Shown piece after piece: positions 29,330 through 49,861 of a stretch of 64,000 bases of DNA. A program made the translations under genes and the position numbers. The DNA is from Glaucostegus cemiculus. Lineage: Eukaryota. The stretch lies in assembly GCA_976551045.1 (NCBI GenBank), contig CDPCPM010000016.1, positions 24,118,001-24,182,000 on the forward strand, written 5' to 3'. Position 1 is the stretch's first letter. Every line of letters starts with the position of its first letter. Under the pieces are notes generated by a model. The model saw nothing but the letters and a program-made list of their open reading frames with translations, was not told where the DNA came from and made no database searches.

Positions 29330-29900
29330 CAACTGAAGCTGCGAACCCTGCAGAAAGGTTTCGGTGCACAGGCCAGCGTGAGCGACAGCACGGAAGGAAG
29401 GTGGAATTGATGACGCAGCACAGACCGCCTCCATCTCCGTGGCAACCGCTCGATCGCTCGGTTGGCCACTAGCTGCGAGGTGGCAGGAGGGAGTAATCGA
29501 GTGTCGGCCCTTTGACAACCGGAACTGGAGGCGGTGCCGGGTGAGAGGAAGAGAGGGAGGCAGACGGACAGACATCGAGGTTTCCTTTAACCGCCGCCCG
29601 TGCTCTCTTTCCATCACAGCGGCAGACATGGCCTCTTCGGCTGGGGGCACGGCGCCGGCAGGTCCCGGGGCGGGCACTGGCTCGGGCCCCGGGCCCTCCA
29701 TGTTCCGCTGGCTGGAGGTACTGGAGAAGGAGTTCGATAAGGCCTTCGTGGACGTGGACCTGCTGCTGGGCGAGATCGACCCCGATCAGTCCGAGATCAC
29801 GTATGAGGGCCGCCAGAAGATGACGGCGCTCAGCTCCTGCTTCGCACAGCTGTGCCACAAGGCTCAGACCGTCTTCCAGATCAATCACAAGCTGGAGGTG
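29330..29900. promoter_or_regulatory. CpG island / GOPC promoter
   Basis: CpG-rich; TGACGCA (29411), X-box-like ctccgtggcaac (~29435-29446), ETS-like CCGGAA (29519). Confidence 0.7.
29628..29897 (+). CDS. GOPC: GOPC (PIST/CAL) exon 1
   Basis: MASSAGG...[31 protein letters not shown]...[13 protein letters not shown]; donor GAG|GTGAGG. Confidence 0.97.
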
Positions 29901-29924
29901 AGGGCAATGCATTAATGCTTTGTG

Positions 29925-32460: not shown

Positions 32461-32914
32461 GCTTCAGAACCTTGTTGAACTGCTGCATCTCACTTTCAGA
32501 AAACTTCCTACAGAATTGAGGTTAATCTTCAAAACTCATGAGAAACTATTTAATCGACAGGGCTACATTCCAAAACCAATGTCATCCCAACTTCAGTAGT
32601 CAAGCTGCAGTGTACAGATTACGCAAGCATTTACACAGGTCGTTCCAAGCTATTATAAACTTGTTCACTGATGCATATGGGAGGATGGGGAATACTCTCA
32701 ACATCTGCAAGACAAAATCTTCTTTTGGCTTGCCCTCACTGTACAACATCACCCATTCTCATCGGTCATCTTTAAACACACAGAAATGGAATGGAAACAG
32801 GTTGTCCTCAATTTCAGTGGATTGCCTCAAGAAGAAGGTTGGTTGGCAAAAGTGCTGGCATTGACAATCATGCCTGCATCCTGAGAAATGAAAAACAAAA
32901 GAGTAAATTACAGA

Positions 32915-35698
32915 AACGTGGTTGCAGGGTGGAGATGAGTGGGAATTAAATATCCAAGGGAATCAGGTAATACAGAAGGATAGCCAGGAAGGTAAAGGGA
33001 GGTGGGTAGCACTCTTAATTAAGAATGAGACCAGGGCAATAGTGAGAGATGATATAAGATATAAGGAACAGAATGATGAGTCTGGGTAGAGATTAGGAGG
33101 AGTAAAGGAAAAAAAAAATCACTGGTGGGAGTTGTCTGTAGGCCACCGAATAATAACATTACAATAGCACGGGCAATAACCTAAGAAATATTTGATGTAT
33201 GTAAGAATGGAATGGCAGTTGTCATGGGGGACTTAAACTATCACATCGATTGGGCGCATCAAGTTGGTCGAGGCAGTTTTGAGGAGGACTTCACAGAATA
33301 CATTTGTGATAGCTCTCTTGAACAGCATGTTAGTGAACCTACAGGGGAAAATGCTATCTTAGATCTGGTCCTGTGCAATGAGACAGGTAAAATTAACAAT
33401 CTTGTAGTTGGGGTTCCTCTTGGAAAGAGTGATCACAATATGATTGAATTTCTCATACAAATGGAGGGTGCGGTAGTTTGATCTAAAACCAGTGTATTAT
33501 GCCTAAACAAGGGAGACTACAACAGGATGAGGGAGGAGTTGGCTAGCGTAGACTGGAAACACAGGCTATATGGTGGAACAATTGAGGACAGTGGAAGACT
33601 TTCAAAGAGATTTTTCACAGTGCTCAACAAAAGGATATTCCAGTTAAAAGCAAGGACAGTAAGGGTGGGGAGAGCCAGCCTTGGATAACTAAGGAAATAA
33701 AAGAAGGCATCAAGCAAAAAGCTCATGCATACAAAGTCACCAAGAGTAATGGGAAACTGGAAGATTGGGGAAATTTTAAAATGCAACAAAGAACCACTAA
33801 GCAAGCAATAAGGAAAGGGAAGATATATTTTGAATGTAAACTAGCACAAAATATGAAAAGGGATAGTAAAAGTTTTTATAATTATATGAAGCGGAAAAGG
33901 GTGGCTAAAGTGAATGTACGTCCCTTGGACATTGAGAAGGGGGAATTAATATTGGGTAATGTGGAAATGACCGAGGCCTTGAACGACTATTTTGTATCAG
34001 TCTTTATGGTGGAGGACACATCTAACATGCCAAAGAGAGATGTTATGGATGCGATAGGTGATGAGGAACTCGATGCAATCGCTGTCACTAAAGAGGTAAT
34101 GATGAGCAAACAAGTGGACCTAAAGGTAGACAAGACCTCTGGTCCTGATGGGATGCATCCCAGGGTACGGAAAGAAATGGCAGAAGTTATAGTAGAGGCG
34201 TTTGTGATAATTTACCCAAATTCTCGGGACTCTGGGCAGGTCTCGGCAGATTGGAAGACAGTGAATATCACAACACTGTTTAAAAAAGGATGTAGGCAAA
34301 AGACAGGTAACTATAGGCCAGTTAGCTTAACATCTGTAGTCAGGAAAATACTTGAAGCTATCATTAAGGAAGAAATAACAAAACATCTGGATAGAAGTGG
34401 TTCCATCAGGCAGACACAGCATGGATTCAGGAAGGGCAAGTCCTGTTTGACAAACTTATTGGAGTCCTTTGAAGATATAATGAGAGGGGAACAGGTGGAT
34501 GTTGTGTACTTAGATTTTCAGAAGGTGTTCAATAAGGTGCCATATAAAATACTTATCCATCAGATAAGAATGTATGGAGTTGGGAGTAAGGTATTAGCAT
34601 GGATAGAGGATTGGTTAACCAATAGAAGGCAGAGAGTTGAGATGAATGGGTACTTCTCCGGTCGGCAATCAGTGGTGAGTGTGGTGTCGTGGGGGTTGGT
34701 GCTAGGTCCGCAACTGTTCACGATATACATTAACAATTTGGAAGAGGGGACCAAGTGTAGTGTATCTAAGTTTGCTGATGACTCTAAATTGAGAAGAAAA
34801 GCGAATTTTGCAGAGGATGCGGAGACTCTGCAGAGAGATATAGATAGGTTAAGTTAGAGGGCAAGAGTCTGGCAAATGGAGTACAATGTTGGTAAATGTG
34901 AGGTCATCCACTTTGGAAGGAAAAATAGAAGATCAGATTATTATTTAAATGATGAAAGACTGCAGCATGCTGTTGTTCAGAAGGACTTGGGAGTACTTGT
35001 GCATGAATGGCAAAAGGTTGGTTTGCAGGTGCAACAGGTTATCAAGAAGGCCAGTGGAATGTTGGCTTTCATTGCTAGAGGGACTGAATTTAAGAGCAGG
35101 GAGGTTATGCCGCAATTGTACAGGGTACTGGTGAAGCCGCATCTGGAGTACTGCGTGCAGTTCTGGTCACCTTACTTGAGGAATGATATACTGGCTTTGG
35201 AGAAGGTGCAGAGGAGTTTCACCAGGTTGATTCCAGAGATGAAGGGGTTAGCCTATGAGGAGAGATTGAGTAGCCTGGGACTATACTCACTGGAATTCAG
35301 AAGAATGAGAGGGAATCTTATAGAAACATATAAAATGATGAAAGGGATAGGTAAGATAGAGGCAGGAAGCTTGTTTCTATTGGCAGGGGAGACTAGAACC
35401 AGGGGGTACAGCCTCAAGGTTTGAGGGAATATATTTAGGACAGAGATGAGGAGAAACTGCTTTTCACAGAGAGTAGTGAATCTGGGGAATTCTCTGCTCA
35501 GGGAAGCAGTGGAGTCTACCTCATTAAATATATTTAAGACACATATAGATTTTTGCACAGTAGGGGAATTAAGGGTTACGGGGAAAAGACGGGTAAGTGG
35601 ACCTAAGTCCATGACCAGATCAGCTATGATCTTACTGTATGGCGGAGCAGGCTCATTGGGCCAGATGGCTGACTCCTGCTCCTATTTCTTAAGTTCTT
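32915..35698 (+). mobile_element. CR1 LINE ORF2 (APE endonuclease + RT), inactivated
   Basis: MGDLN, LDLVL, SDH endonuclease motifs; NYRPVSLTS, QHGF, YLDFQK, SKFADD RT motifs; in-frame stops; ends tcctatttcttaagttctt. Confidence 0.95.
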
Positions 35699-40430: not shown

Positions 40431-41219
40431 AGCTGCTGAGAAAGCAATTCATGTTTTGTAGAGGGCAGGCAAAGGGCCCAGCCCTTATGGTGTTTGAGGA
40501 AGTGAAATGCAGTGTAGATAATTTTTAAGGAGGAGTAACAGTTTAGCAGTTTGGGAGTTGCATTTTCTAATACCTTGTGATTTTGTGGAATAGTTAATCT
40601 TCGTAATTTTTCTTTGAGTCACCCTGTTATACCAAAAGGAAAGGGTTAGAAGGAATGTAGCTCTGCAAACAATGGAATGTTTAAGAAAAAAATTCTGTTC
40701 TTTTATGTTAATCCCAATCAAGACTATAGTGTTTTACTTTTTGATGAAGGAGAAGAAGAAGAATCTTTTCTAAATCTGGGGGTAGAATATCATCAGTGAT
40801 AAAGAAGGAGTTCTACATGTTAGGCTTATTTTAGCCCTCTGTATTCAACATTGAATTTATTGTTCAGAGGCTTGAATGTCATATTTCCAGTTTGTACAAT
40901 TTTTTTGTCTTATCTGGTGAATTTAGATTTCATAATTTCTATTAATACCTCAGACAATCCATTTATTAGAAATTGGACACTTTTCTGAGCCTTGAGCCTG
41001 CCCTCAACAAAACTTGAACTGTTTTCTCTGGAGTGTCAAAGACTGATGGCTGACTTGATAGAAATATATAAAATTATGAGAGGAATAGATAATGTTGATA
41101 AAGTCTTTTTCCCAGGGTAGAAATGCCCAGTGGGTCCACGTTAACTATCAACCACCCATATAGACTAATCCTACACTCACCCCATTTATTTATTCTCCTC
41201 ACATTCTCATCAGCTCAAA

Positions 41220-43006
41220 GTTAGCATGAAACAGTGACCACAACTTCTTGACCTTTAGCATAGCCATGGACAAGGATAGCAGCAGACGATATGGAAACAT
41301 TTTTAATTGGGGGAAGGCTAATTACACTGGTATTAAGCAGGGACTTGGGAGCGTAAATTGGGAACAGATGTTCTCAGGGAAATGCACAGCAGAAATGTGG
41401 ATGCTGTTTAGGGAACATTTGCATGGGGTTCTGGATAGGTTTGTCCCACGGAGACAGGGAAAGGATGGTAGATAAAAGGAACCATAGTTGACAAGAGATG
41501 TGACGCATTTAGTCAAGAGGAAGAAGGAAGCATACCTAAGGTTTAGGAAGCAAAAATCAGGCAGGACTCTTGAGAATTATAAGGTAGCCAGGAAGGAGCT
41601 TAAGAAGGGAAGGGGACATGAGAAGGCCTTGGTGAGGAGAATTAAGAAAAACCCCAAGGCATTCCACACGTATGTAAAGAACAGGAAGGGAGGATGACTA
41701 GAGTGACGGTAGGTCCACTCAGGGGTAAAAGGGGAAACATGTGGCTGGAGGCGGAAGAGGTAGGGGAGGTCCTTAATGAATACTTTGCTTTAGTGTTTAC
41801 TAGGGAGAGGGACTTTGACGAATGTGAGGTCAGCATAGGACAGGCTAATGTGCTGGAGCATGTTGAGGTTAGGAAAGAGATAGAGTTCTGAAAAACATTA
41901 GGACAGATAAGTCCCTGGGGTTGGACGGGATATTACCCTAGGTTACTACGGGAAGCAAGGGAAGAGATTGCTGGGGCATTAATGATGACATTTGATTCCT
42001 CTCTGGCCACAGGAGTAGTACCAGAGGATTGGAGGATGGCAAATGTTGTTCCCTTGTTCAAGAAAAGTAATAGAGATAATCCTGGGAATTATACACTGAT
42101 GAGTCTTATATCAGTGGTGAGTAAACTATTGGAGAGGATTCTTAGGGACATGATTTACAAACATTTGAAGAAGCATAGTCTTATTAGGGATAGTTAGCAT
42201 GGATTTATGAGGCGCAGGTTGTGCATTATGAGCCTATATCTGGGGTGTAGAGTATTGTCAGTAATAAAAGAAGGAGCTTTTTGAGGACATGACAAAACAA
42301 ATTGTTGAAGGTAGAGGGGTGGATGTGGTGTATATGGACTTCAGTGAGGCGTTTGACAAGGCTCCCCATGGTAGGCTCATCCAGGAAGTCATGAGGAAAG
42401 GGATCCATGGAAACTTGGCTGCGTGGATTCTGAATTGGCTTGCGCAGAGAAGGCAGGGGGTGGTAGTAAATGGAGAGTATTCTGCCTGGAGGTCGGTGAC
42501 TAGTGGTGTTCCACAGGTATCTGTTTGGGACCCCTGCTGTTTGTGATTTTTTATAAATCATTTGGATGAAGAAGTGTAGAAGGTTGTTGTAGGTTACAAC
42601 AGGGTATAGACAAGATGCTGAGTTGGGAGGAGAAGTGTATGGATAAGATTATGAGGGGAATAGATAGCGTGTACACCCAGCACCTTTTCCCCAGGGTGGC
42701 AATGGAAATAGCAGAGGACATCAGTTTAAGGTTAGAGGAGGAAAGTTTAGGGGTTACGTCAGAGGTAGTTTTTTTGCACAGAGGATGATGGGTGCCTGGA
42801 ACGCACTTTCGGAGGTGCTGGTAGATGCTGATACAATAGGAGCATTTAAAAGACTCTTAGATAGGCACATTGGATGAAGTAAGATTGAGGGTCATAGGCT
42901 GTTTAGGAGGAAAGGGTTAGATTAATCGGGGAATAGGTGTTTATACAGGTCGGCACAACATAATGGGCCAAAGGGCCCGTACTGTGCTTTACTGTTCTAG
43001 GTTCTA
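41220..43006 (+). mobile_element. CR1 ORF2 fragment with internal deletion, inserted into a minus-strand V-SINE
   Basis: FNWGKANY, NPKAF, PEDWRMANVVPLFKK, YMDFSEAFDK; jumps to the 3' region at ~42640; SINE halves at ~41128-41217 and ~43007-43102. Confidence 0.85.
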
Positions 43007-44440: not shown

Positions 44441-44956
44441 GGGAAGTATGCACCTGTGAGTGTTCTGACTTCAGGATCAAGAAGCTATAACAAATCAATG
44501 TTCTGCAAAGTAGCACCAAGTGGAGTACCACATGGGTTGTGCTCAGGAATGTTTTACAAAATGGTCCTTGGCATAATGATCAAATTGTCAACTTAATCTA
44601 TGAATCTACAGGATGTGGTGTCTATAACTTTGTGACTCATTAAAATGGGTACCCTTTATGTCTGACTATGCTATATTTAGTATACTGCATTCTGAATACC
44701 ATGGCAAGTTATTTCCATTCCAGTTTATTTGTTTGAGCTATATAAGATATTTTAGGACATAAATATTTATAATTGTTGGTTGGAAGTTTCTTCACAGTCA
44801 TTTGTATGGCTAATATTTGCATAATTAATTGTAATTGGATTGCCTACAATATTATCATTAAATTAAAAATACTACAAATTTTGGAAATCCAAAATAAAAA
44901 GAGGAAATGCTAGAAATACTCAACTCTGATGGAAAGTTATCAATCTGAAATATTTA

Positions 44957-47900
44957 GAACCATAGAACCATAGAACAATACAGCACAAAACAGGCCCTTC
45001 GGCCCACCAAATTGTGCCATCCTTCAAATGTCTCACAATCTAACTCTTTCCTCCCACATATCCTACTATTCCACATTCTTCCATGTGCCTATTCAACAAT
45101 CTCTTGAACCTGTCCAACGTATCTGCCTCTACTACCACCCCAGGCAGCGCATTCCATGCGCCAAACACTCTCTGGGTGAAAAACTTCCACTGTGACATCT
45201 CCCCTAAACTTACCACCCAATATCTTAAAGCCATGCCCTCTCATCTTGTGCATCAGCGCTCTGGGAAAGAGGCACTGGCTGTCAACTCTATCTATTCCTC
45301 TCAATATCTTATACACCTCCATCAAGTGTCCTCTCATCCTCCTCCTCTCCAACGAGTAGAGCCCTAGCACCTTAAGCCTCTCCTCATATTCCATACCCTC
45401 TAATCCAGGCATCATCCTGGTAAATCGCCTCTGTACCCTCTCCAACGCCTCCACATCCTTCCTATAATGCGGTGACCAGAACTAAACGCAATATTCTAAG
45501 TGCGGCCTAACTAGAGTTTTGTAAAGCAGCATCATCACCTCTCTGCTCTTGAACTCAATCCCACGATTTATAAAAGCTAACATCCCATAAGCCTTCTTAA
45601 CTGCCCTATCCACCTGCGAGGCAACTTTGAGTGAACTGTGGATATGAACCCCCGGATTCCTCTGCTCCTCAACACTGCCAAGTACCTTACCATTTACCTC
45701 ATACTCTGCCCTGGAGTTCGTCCTCCCAAAGTGCACCACCTCACACTTCTCCGGATTAAACTCCATCTGCCACCTGTCCGCCCAGCTCTGCATCCTATCA
45801 ATATCCTTCTGTAAGCTCCGACAGTCCTCCACACTATCTACCACACCGCCGATCTTGGTGTCATCCGCAAACTTACCAACCCATCCTTCCACTCCTTCAT
45901 CTAAGTCATCTATAAATATAACAAAGAGTAGAGGTCCCAGAACCGATCCCTGCGGGACACCACTAGTCACAGCCCTCCAATCCAAGGGCACTCCCTCCAC
46001 CACAACCCTCTGCTTTCTACAGGCAAGCCAATTCCTGATCCACACAGCCAAACTCCCCTGGATGCCTCGACCTCTGACCTTCTGAAGCCTGCCATGAGGA
46101 ACCTTATCGAATGCCTTACTAAAATCCTTTCTTTTTCAATCTTTTTTATCGATAACAAATCATTACAGGTTAAAATATATAACAACAATGTTTACACATG
46201 TATTATAGAAATATCAAGTAAATCGTAGGCAGTCATTAAAAGAAAGCAATAAAATATGATATATATAAAAGAAATAGTTCCAACAATCTCTCGGTTCATA
46301 AGTGTAATGTGAAAGATAGAAAAGAAAAAGATTTGTTATATAATTAGAAAAAAAACGCCAAAAAAAACGCAAATCAATTTTAAAAAATCATAATAATATA
46401 GAGTAAATTAAACCAAAATCAATTTTAAAAAAAGAAGAAAAAAAAAACAAAACAAGGAAAAAAAAAACTGGGCTAAAATTTTCAATAGAAATAGAACAAT
46501 ATAATGTTGTCAGCTCCGTTTCTCTAAATTAAAAGAAAGTTATAGAAGGGGAAACTATATCATATGAAAGTATTGAATAAATGGACTCCAAATATCTTCA
46601 AATTTAAGCGAAGAATCAACAGTACCACTCCTAATTTTTTCCAAATTAAGACATGATATAGTTTGAGAGAACCATTGAAAAGTGGTAGGGGGTATTGGAT
46701 CCTTCCATTTAAGCAGAATGACTCGTTTGGCCATCAATGTAACAAAAGCAATCATACGATTATCAGAAGCAGGTAAGTGGCCAGACTTTATCCATGGTAA
46801 TCCAAAAATTGCAGTAATAGGGTGAGGTTGTAAACCTATCTTCAATACATCTGAAATAATATTAAAAATGTCTTTCCAATATTTTTCTAAATAAGGACAA
46901 GACCAGAACATATGCGACAAAGAAGCCACGTTTGATTTACATCTGTCACATATAGGGTTTATACGATCATAAAAATGAGCTAGCTTATCTTTGGACATAT
47001 AGGCCCTAGCCTTACTAAAATCCATATAGACTACATCCACCGCACTGCCCTCATCAAGCTTCCTCGTCACTTCCTCAAAGAATCCTATCAGGCTCGTGAG
47101 GCAAGATCTTCCCTTCACAAAGCCATGCTGACTGTCCCTAATCAGTCCGTGACTCTCCAGGTGTTCATAGATCCTATCCCTCAGAATCCTTTCTAACAGC
47201 TTACCCGCCACAGACGTGAGACTCACCGGTCTGTAATTTCCCGGACTATCCCTACTACCTTTTTTAAACAAGGGAACAACATCCGCTACCCACCAATCCT
47301 CTGGCACCATCCCCGTGGACAGTGAGGACTCAAATATCCTCACCAGCGGATCAACAATCTCCTCCCTCGCCTCTTGAAGCAGCCTGGGGAATATTCCGTC
47401 AGGCCCCGGAGACTTATCTGTCTTGATATTATTTAACAATTTCAACACCTCCTCCCTCTCGATAGCTACATACTCAAGAACATTACCCTTACCAGCACTC
47501 TCTGTCGCGTCATCCAGACCCCTCTCCTTGGTGAATATGGAAGAGAAGTATTCATTCAGTACCTCCCCTACTTTTGCCGCCTCCAGGCACATCCTCCCAC
47601 CTTTGTCTTTAATCGGACCTACCTTCACCCTAGCCATCCTTCTGCCCTTCACATACGAGAAAAAAGCCTTGGGATTTTCCTTAACCCTAATAGCCAACAT
47701 CTTTTCATGTCCCCTTCTAGCTCTCCTCAGCTCTTTCTTAAGTTCCTTCCTCACTATACTATATTCCTCACGGGCCACGTCCAAGCCTTGCCGCTTACAC
47801 CTTATGTAAGCCGCCTTCTTCCTCCTAACCAGACGTTCCAACTCTCTCGTCACCCACGGTTCCTTCACCCTGCCATTCCTCCTTTGTCTTGCCGGGACAT

Positions 47901-49191
47901 ATTTATCCCTAACATCCTGTAAAACATCCCTGAACAACATCCACATCTCCACAGTACACTTCCCCTCAAAAAGGACTTCCCAATTTACACTCCCAAGTTC
48001 TCTCCTTATAGCCTCATAGTCTGCCCTTCCCCAATTAAATATCCTCCTGTCCTCTCTGCACCTATCCCTGTCCATGACAATTCTAAAGCTTATCGAGCAA
48101 TGATCACTGTCCCCCAAATGCTCACCCACCAGTAGATCCCTCACCTGTCTCGGTTCATTTCCTAAAACCAGATCCAACACCGAATTCCCTCTAGTCGGCC
48201 TGTCAACATACTGCATCAGGAATCCATCCTGGACACACTTAACAAACTCGTTCCCATCTAAACCCTTGGCACTGAGCATGTCCCAGTCTATATTCAGGAA
48301 GTTGAAATCTCCCATTATTACAACCCTGTTACTTTTGCTTCTGTCCAAACACTGCCTGCCAATCTGCTCCTCTATATCTCTACTGCTACCAGGGGGCCTA
48401 TAGTATACCCCCAGCAGCGTAATCGCACTCTTCCTGTTCCTCACTTCCACCCACTCCAACTCGAGAGAGGATCCTTCTGCAAAATCCACCCTTTCTGCAG
48501 CCATAACATCGTCCCTGACCAATATCGCCACCCCTCCTCCTCTTCTCCCCCCTTCCCTATCCCTTTTAAAACACTGAAAACCAGGAATATTCAATATCCA
48601 CTCCTGTCCTGACGACAGCCACGTCTCAGTTATAGCTACGATATCATAGTCCCCCATACTTATCCAAGCCCTCAATTCATCTCCCTTATTCCTGACACTT
48701 CTCGCACTAAAGTAAACACACTTTAGTCCATCCACTTTACCACTTTTATAGCCTGTACCCTGCCTCTCCTTCCCCAAAGCCTCTCTACCTGCTCGATCCA
48801 ACTCTTCTCCATCCCTTTCTTCCTCTGCCCTACTCCTCCGGTTCCCATCCCCCTCACAAATTAGTTTAAACCCTCCGCAACCACTCTAGCAAACCTAACC
48901 GCAAGGATATTGGCTCCCTTCTGGTTTGGGTGTAACCCGTCCTGTCTGTACAGGTGCCACTTTCCCGAGAAGAGATCCCAATGATCCAGAAATCTAAAAC
49001 CCTCCCTCCTGCACCAACTTCTCAGCCACGCATTTATCTGCTACTTCCTCCTGTTCCTGCCTTCACTATCGCGTGGCACCGGCAGCAATCCCGAGATCAC
49101 TACCCTCGAGGTCCTGTTCCTCAGTCTCCTGCCTATCTCCATAAAGTCTCTCTTCAGGACCTCATCCCCCTTCCTATCTATGTCGTTGGTG
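44957..49191 (-). mobile_element. Young 5'-truncated CR1 (end of esterase ORF1 + ORF2), interrupted by an L1
   Basis: ORF1 C-terminus TND...FLDHWDLF...DGLHPN, stop at 48861-48863; ORF2 APE (TETWL, MGDFN, SDH) and RT (YRPVSLTS, QHGF, KFADD); (agaaccat)n tail. Confidence 0.95.
46128..47008 (-). mobile_element. 5'-truncated L1-clade element (881 bp)
   Basis: Encodes CDRC-x8-H-x4-C (HMFWSC) zinc knuckle and WK...W C-terminus typical of fish L1 ORF2; T-rich 3' UTR ending aaagattgaaaaagaaa; 15-bp TSD gccttactaaaatcc at 46113-46127 and 47009-47023. Confidence 0.92.
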
Positions 49192-49696: not shown

Positions 49697-49861
49697 GCCC
49701 AGCTTCTGGATATGAAGTCAGAGCTAATTGATACTCAGGCTGAGAAGGTTGTGTTAGAGAAGGAAGTGCATGATCAGCTTTTGCAGCTTCATGCTGTTCA
49801 ACTGCAGTTGCATGCCAAGACTGGGCAAAATGTTGATTCCGGCTCAATCAAGGCTAAGCTG
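49697..49861 (+). CDS. GOPC: GOPC exon 2
   Basis: ctgtag|[10 protein letters not shown]...[36 protein letters not shown]|gtatgt; 165 nt. Confidence 0.96.

Follow-up and report, generated by a model that had tools for sequence, protein, structure and literature searches.

A 776-codon CR1-L1 reading frame in a GOPC intron of Glaucostegus cemiculus, very probably an inert accident of nested insertion

Does a reading frame that runs without a stop from the endonuclease of one LINE into the C-terminus of a LINE of another clade point to a shuffled protein, or does it arise where two insertions happen to meet in register? The question is raised by a locus of Glaucostegus cemiculus (assembly GCA_976551045.1, contig CDPCPM010000016.1), analysed in a stretch of 64,000 nucleotides (contig positions 24,118,001 to 24,182,000; henceforth the window, in which all positions are counted). 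A 5'-truncated L1 lies here in a 5'-truncated CR1 within an intron of GOPC, and the 776-codon frame is very probably an inert accident of two young, little-mutated insertions. The nest and its surroundings consist of the following parts:

29628..29909, plus strand: first coding exon of GOPC (ends approximate; protein homology)
44955..46112, minus strand: CR1 3' half with the rest of the RT (GVPQG, FADD), the C-terminus, the 3' UTR and a TTCTATGG-type tail (Pfam and relatives)
46113..46127, no strand: copy of the target-site duplication (TSD) that adjoins the L1 tail (exact 15-mer match)
46128..46554, minus strand: L1 3' UTR and GAAA-type tail (comparison with 29 relatives)
46555..47008, minus strand: end of L1 ORF2, 5'-truncated, the last 150 codons and stop (C-terminal domain; Pfam and relatives)
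46897..46950, minus strand: complete CCHC zinc knuckle, CX2CX8HX4C (motif match)
47009..47023, no strand: TSD copy at the in-frame junction, coding for MDFSKA (exact 15-mer match)
47009..48885, minus strand: 5' half of CR1 ORF2 with APE endonuclease, linker and RT profile positions 4-78 (Pfam)
48706..48708, minus strand: codon 60 of the frame, where the invariant Asn, probably that of motif I, is replaced by Ser (homologue alignment)
48861..49190, minus strand: what is left of CR1 ORF1, interrupted by a stop: the C-terminal portion of a GDSL/SGNH esterase (Pfam and relatives)
49697..49861, plus strand: next coding exon of GOPC (protein homology)

The flanking exon belongs to GOPC, 98% like the ray proteins, and since GOPC exons lie on the plus strand on either side, the nest occupies the first coding intron, 20 kb long, in antisense orientation. 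GOPC has seven coding stretches on the plus strand of the window (29628-61028), which also holds further long CR1-like ORF2 copies at 32907-35463 and 41203-42775. Searches of Pfam, PDB and the atlas, together with a splice-site scan, gave no name for the host exon; a sigma-70 promoter scan was disregarded as not meaningful for a vertebrate.

The host element spans about 44955-49190 on the minus strand and is 5'-truncated at 49190, inside the ORF1 esterase; no TSD of its own is evident. Its ORF2 has an APE endonuclease and an RT, without a C-terminal CCHC; its ORF1 is an SGNH/GDSL esterase (Lipase_GDSL_2 at E 7e-7, just under the cut-off, for a 59-aa piece) and its tail is made of short tandem 3' repeats. 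An esterase of this type in ORF1 and a short tandem 3' tail are marks of vertebrate CR1. By domains and tail the element is thus CR1-type, an assignment in which CR1 and L2 are not separated by a tree. The nearest named homologues of its ORF2 are from rays. The 29 closest genomic copies are 95-97% identical to it, and all 29 run on as CR1 at the insertion site; the 3' half (44955..46112) is 92-96% identical to 29 relatives and is damaged: a stop codon interrupts it at 45482-45484, and 3 nt are missing near 46087. Among public vertebrate proteins that bear the names of host genes, several (P0004, P0007, P0018, P0026, P0034, P0057 and P0093) contain a CR1 endonuclease domain, and are likely gene models that have swallowed intronic CR1 copies.

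That an 881-bp element with a perfect 15-bp TSD sits in the RT of this CR1, in the same orientation, was already seen in the sequence-only reading, and coordinates, TSD and tail bear it out. The 15-mer has just two exact copies in the window (46113-46127 and 47009-47023, no mismatches), a pairing seen in 0 of 100 shuffles; the insert between them (46128-47008) shares the minus strand with the CR1, ends in an A-rich tail of GAAA repeats and is truncated at its 5' end, where no microhomology was seen at the junction. The CR1 was inserted first and the L1 second, since the 15 bp that were duplicated belong to the CR1. TSD, A-rich tail and 5' truncation are hallmarks of target-primed reverse transcription (TPRT), the established route of LINE integration, by which the L1 would have entered, duplicating the target and breaking off after 881 nt.

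The insert belongs to a large family of the L1 clade. A 32-nt pattern finds at least 4,852 copies genome-wide, and 39 other copies (the best 39 of 4,420 candidates) match at 92-97%; their truncation points vary and their TSDs measure about 10-20 bp. The insert itself aligns to residues 1127-1247 of human ORF2p with E 0.02, and the clade assignment follows from the long copies, in which a Transposase_22 ORF1 stands beside an ORF2 near human L1 ORF2p: L120 has the L1 RBD-like domain above the cut-off (E 1.4e-5; this domain does not lie within the truncated insert), and the ORF2 of L112 matches human L1 ORF2p at E 1e-125 and R2 at 1e-24, by match score without a tree and in PDB, where few clades are represented. 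The CCHC knuckle agrees with both. Just upstream of the long L1 in L112, in the same orientation, lies a CR1 copy whose RT is open over a piece of 319 codons (L112:89-1610). Among the 29 best-scoring relatives of the insert, seven (L002, L007, L014, L017, L021, L027 and L030) break off at the 5' end no more than about 55 nt from the point where the insert does; this clustering near 47008 may reflect a truncation hot spot or a search bias.

Across the junction, the minus-strand frame is open from 46555 to 48885, that is 776 codons from stop to stop; the stop-free 748 codons counted earlier are the same frame taken from 48801. The peptide at the boundary (47008/47009) is YMDFSKA|RAYMSK, and the order of domains is APE endonuclease, first third of the RT, L1 CCHC knuckle. 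The Pfam check that had been proposed returned all three expected domains: Exo_endo_phos at E 7e-20, RVT_1 only in part (profile positions 4-78 of 205), and zf-RVT at positions 44-85 of 85 with E 0.003, under the curated cut-off. The remainder of RVT_1 (74-194, with FADD) is found in the downstream CR1 half, past the insert, and the product would thus be RT-dead, as had been supposed, the catalytic ADD being absent from the fused frame. The CCHC domain is indeed L1-type and foreign to CR1 ORF2, since 0 of 120 CR1-like ORF2 homologues have zf-RVT or the motif. The earlier remark that no ATG start is evident also stands: the first in-frame ATG is codon 77, within the endonuclease and beyond codon 60. 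Translation of LINE ORF2s can, however, begin in unconventional ways.

The endonuclease has lost an invariant residue. Codon 60 is Ser here and Asn in 98 of 98 homologues that cover the column and in 28 of 29 genomic relatives; the contigs of all four sequencing runs have the family base at this position. All remaining catalytic residues (E, Y, D, N, D, SDH) are preserved, but the set of invariant residues expected of an active APE-type endonuclease is incomplete. The PDB alignments of the endonuclease start at L1 residue 22-23 and leave the motif-I Asn column outside, and the match to exonuclease III starts at profile position 46, chain residue 4, which would bring the column of codon 60 to residue 7 if ungapped; ExoIII Asn7 is, we take it, the motif-I Asn site. 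Codon 60 probably corresponds, as judged by alignment, to the motif-I Asn, likely L1 Asn14 and APE1 Asn68, which are given as counterparts in the accessible part of PMC8565326. The N68A substitution of APE1 lowers activity 600-fold according to the available text of PMC3852660 (to Ala there, to Ser here), and the portions seen of PMC1950540 and PMC3670995 hold no data on L1 N14. The suggestion that the product might be endonuclease-competent is therefore not supported, the Asn being found in all homologues covering the column and in nearly all relatives.

The lack of stops is what would be expected of young elements: both have drifted by about 1.5-2% from their families, and their youth would account for the open frame. 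The same 625 CR1 codons are open in 10 of 29 relatives, and the same 150 L1 codons in 17 of 29, rates that are upper bounds, being taken from the 29 best-scoring relatives of each element. The only stop of the CR1 ORF2 falls outside the fused frame. Divergence at non-CpG sites is 1.5% in the CR1 half within the frame, 2.0% in the CR1 outside it and 1.6% in the L1 coding part, values typical of the respective relatives. From the family majority, the CR1 half differs in 44 of 625 codons, 21 synonymously and 23 nonsynonymously; without CpG sites the ratio of synonymous to nonsynonymous changes is 14/13, as against 289/515 in relatives (Fisher p = 0.10), and for private changes of the CR1 half it is 10/12 (p = 0.08 against the neutral 0.29, p = 0.24 against relatives). 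For the whole fused frame it is 25/28, as against 548/873 in relatives (Fisher p = 0.25, with few changes and low power). The synonymous lean of the fused frame is mild and non-significant.

This lean bears on the idea that an antisense promoter in the GOPC intron drives transcription of the frame, which would yield a protein with endonuclease fold and knuckle, or an RNA, with an effect of its own, for example nucleic-acid binding that hinders LINE mobility, and that selection keeps the frame open. The lean would fit, as would the complete CCHC motif and the length of the frame, the longest among the in-frame junctions seen (626 open codons upstream of the junction, as against 8-114 in five others). 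Against it stand the lost Asn, the late ATG, the missing CR1 5' end and a mutated poly(A) signal of the L1 (GATAAA at 46150, where 28 of 29 relatives have AATAAA); moreover, the divergence of the CR1 half is ordinary (the relatives' median is 1.65%), and the L1 part, with four synonymous and five nonsynonymous changes, is like its relatives. We consider a selected fusion very improbable. With an accidental nest, the locus would be silent or its product inert; a functional product is not to be expected, because the CR1 5' end is gone, the intron is entered in antisense, no ATG precedes the endonuclease, the Asn is lost, two thirds of the RT are missing and the poly(A) signal is mutated. Nor does the locus have the 5' UTR promoter, intact ORF1 and complete RT with ADD that make up an autonomous LINE.

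A chimera of this kind could instead have been copied onward, as a new non-autonomous element with a CR1 head and an L1 tail. L1 proteins recognise the L1 3' UTR and tail, as is established for L1, and the fused unit, ending in both, might by analogy be recognisable to them. A search of the genome for further copies of the junction had been set beforehand as the check. The 30-nt junction pattern, with up to two mismatches, has a single match in the 2.85-Gb assembly, and with a 120-nt junction query only one of 40 scored matches (the best 40 of 1,279 candidates) covers both halves, namely the locus itself; no junction thus recurs at a second locus, and no sign of mobilisation was found. Behind the TSD the locus retains the downstream half of the CR1, and the nest is therefore the original one. 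Mobilisation, largely refuted in this assembly, has next to no probability left. Speaking of cross-clade domain shuffling in an evolutionary sense accordingly goes too far: the junction is uncopied, the signs of selection are non-significant and the genome has many analogues.

A further question is whether the assembly has merely fused two repeats. Among 32 of 3,865 contig pieces, from four sequencing runs, none bridged the junction; depth in unique sequence is about 3 in the two best runs (X1/X2) and cover of the unique flanks is patchy, which leaves some room for an artefact. It would, however, have to produce a perfect 15-bp TSD with the tail on the expected side, in a family whose other copies have TSDs of similar length, and private substitutions on either side of the junction; in addition, independent insertions occur at the same base elsewhere. 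An artefact is hardly plausible. In two other organisms whose intron is about 94% similar, the contigs end before either end of the CR1.

How exceptional an accidental nest with an open junction is depends on how often L1 copies land in CR1. CR1-like ORF2 accounts for 17% of the window and, in 30 sampled flanks, for 14% of the sequence. In 59 sampled L1 copies (the 29 best matches and the 30 first-listed pattern matches), three lie in sense within CR1-like ORF2 (L027, L030 and L086) and two to three in antisense; scaled to 4,852 copies, this amounts to some 250 nests in sense (95% range 50-690), of which some 80 would be in frame (95% range 17-230). The break would have fallen in register by a chance of one in three, as the sequence-only reading had estimated, and this finds support in the other sense junctions that start in L1 coding sequence, 5 of 11 of which are in frame (L099, L105, L108, L109 and L111). 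This count leaves out this locus (L094), L095 and L101 (no CR1 flank), L102 (UTR-only insert), L097 (junction outside L1 coding sequence), L106, L107 and L110 (5' end past the flank), and the antisense L009, L022 and L072; L100 is scored as out of frame because its translation ends after six codons and the reference copy is frameshifted there. At L109:616 (oriented; G000:C167 near 2000640), a distant LINE RT, 32% like this CR1 and presumably Rex1/L2-like, is joined in frame to the same L1 C-terminus, open for 114 codons upstream and on to the L1 stop. In-frame junctions of this sort are routine here, and the open frame is unsurprising.

Some nests recur at the same place. A genome-wide search for RT motifs no more than 25 nt beyond an L1 tail gives five matches for DFSKA (four of them real, including this locus), two for GVPQG and ten for ADDT. 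Three independent L1 copies (at window position 47009, L099 and L097) coincide in their TSD end, at one base of DFSKA, in three different CR1 hosts that are 70-100% like this one: L099 (G000:C360 near 3759270) is about 930 bp long, truncated 48 nt further upstream and in frame, in a host about 70% like this CR1, while L097 (G000:C12 near 21930500) is a 4.8-kb L1 with the identical TSD end. Tx1-type elements are target-specific, and the shared end could mean that this L1 family, too, is specific for a CR1 RT motif. Yet the real DFSKA matches number only four in a family of at least 4,852 copies, the sampled copies mostly lie elsewhere than in CR1 ORF2, and the control motifs were hit as well, ADDT in ten cases (L102-L111), seven of them at one AAR-TTT-GC site, and GVPQG in two; on these controls target-site specificity is rejected, and specificity for a CR1 RT motif has only the slimmest of chances. 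TSDs of the family mostly start with runs of A/G. The clustering at ADDT suggests that the GAAA tail pairs with purine-rich target starts. It is also highly unlikely that the family hits conserved CR1 RT motifs beyond what local sequence and copy number would give, serially disabling a rival LINE and yielding in-frame fusions, of which this clean copy would be one that is expressed antisense to GOPC.

As an accidental nest, the locus shares with other LINE-in-LINE nests formed by TPRT the TSD, 3' tail, 5' truncation, single copy and split host, and is set apart only by a break that keeps the register and by two parts still free of stops, which give the 776-codon frame. With L1 ORF2p it shares the order of endonuclease, RT part and CCHC C-terminus; here, however, the endonuclease is CR1-type with its Asn lost, and the RT ends at profile position 78 of 205, without ADD. 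The accessible part of PMC4120745 proposes hybrid LINEs formed by nested insertion as a source of ORF1 shuffling within the Jockey/CR1/L2 group, and describes ORF2 structure as highly constrained. As far as that text goes, the mechanism is the same, a 5'-truncated LINE inserting into another so that modules of two clades are joined, but those hybrids have a whole ORF2 with a foreign ORF1 and may stay mobile, whereas here the break falls inside the RT, for which reason the chimera cannot be autonomous. The lack of propagation fits the constraint on ORF2 as stated there. An in-frame CR1-L1 ORF2 fusion is not described in the literature searched, of which coverage was partial.

Were it expressed or copied, the fusion would count as a rare crossing of ORF2 modules between LINE clades. 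Taken as inert, the nest illustrates that chance alone can produce a long ORF of several domains in the repeat-rich genome of a cartilaginous fish, and that such an ORF can mislead gene prediction; it also places two LINE bursts in order, this CR1 copy before this L1 copy. The raw material for cross-clade shuffling of ORF2 appears to be made often in this genome, without spreading.
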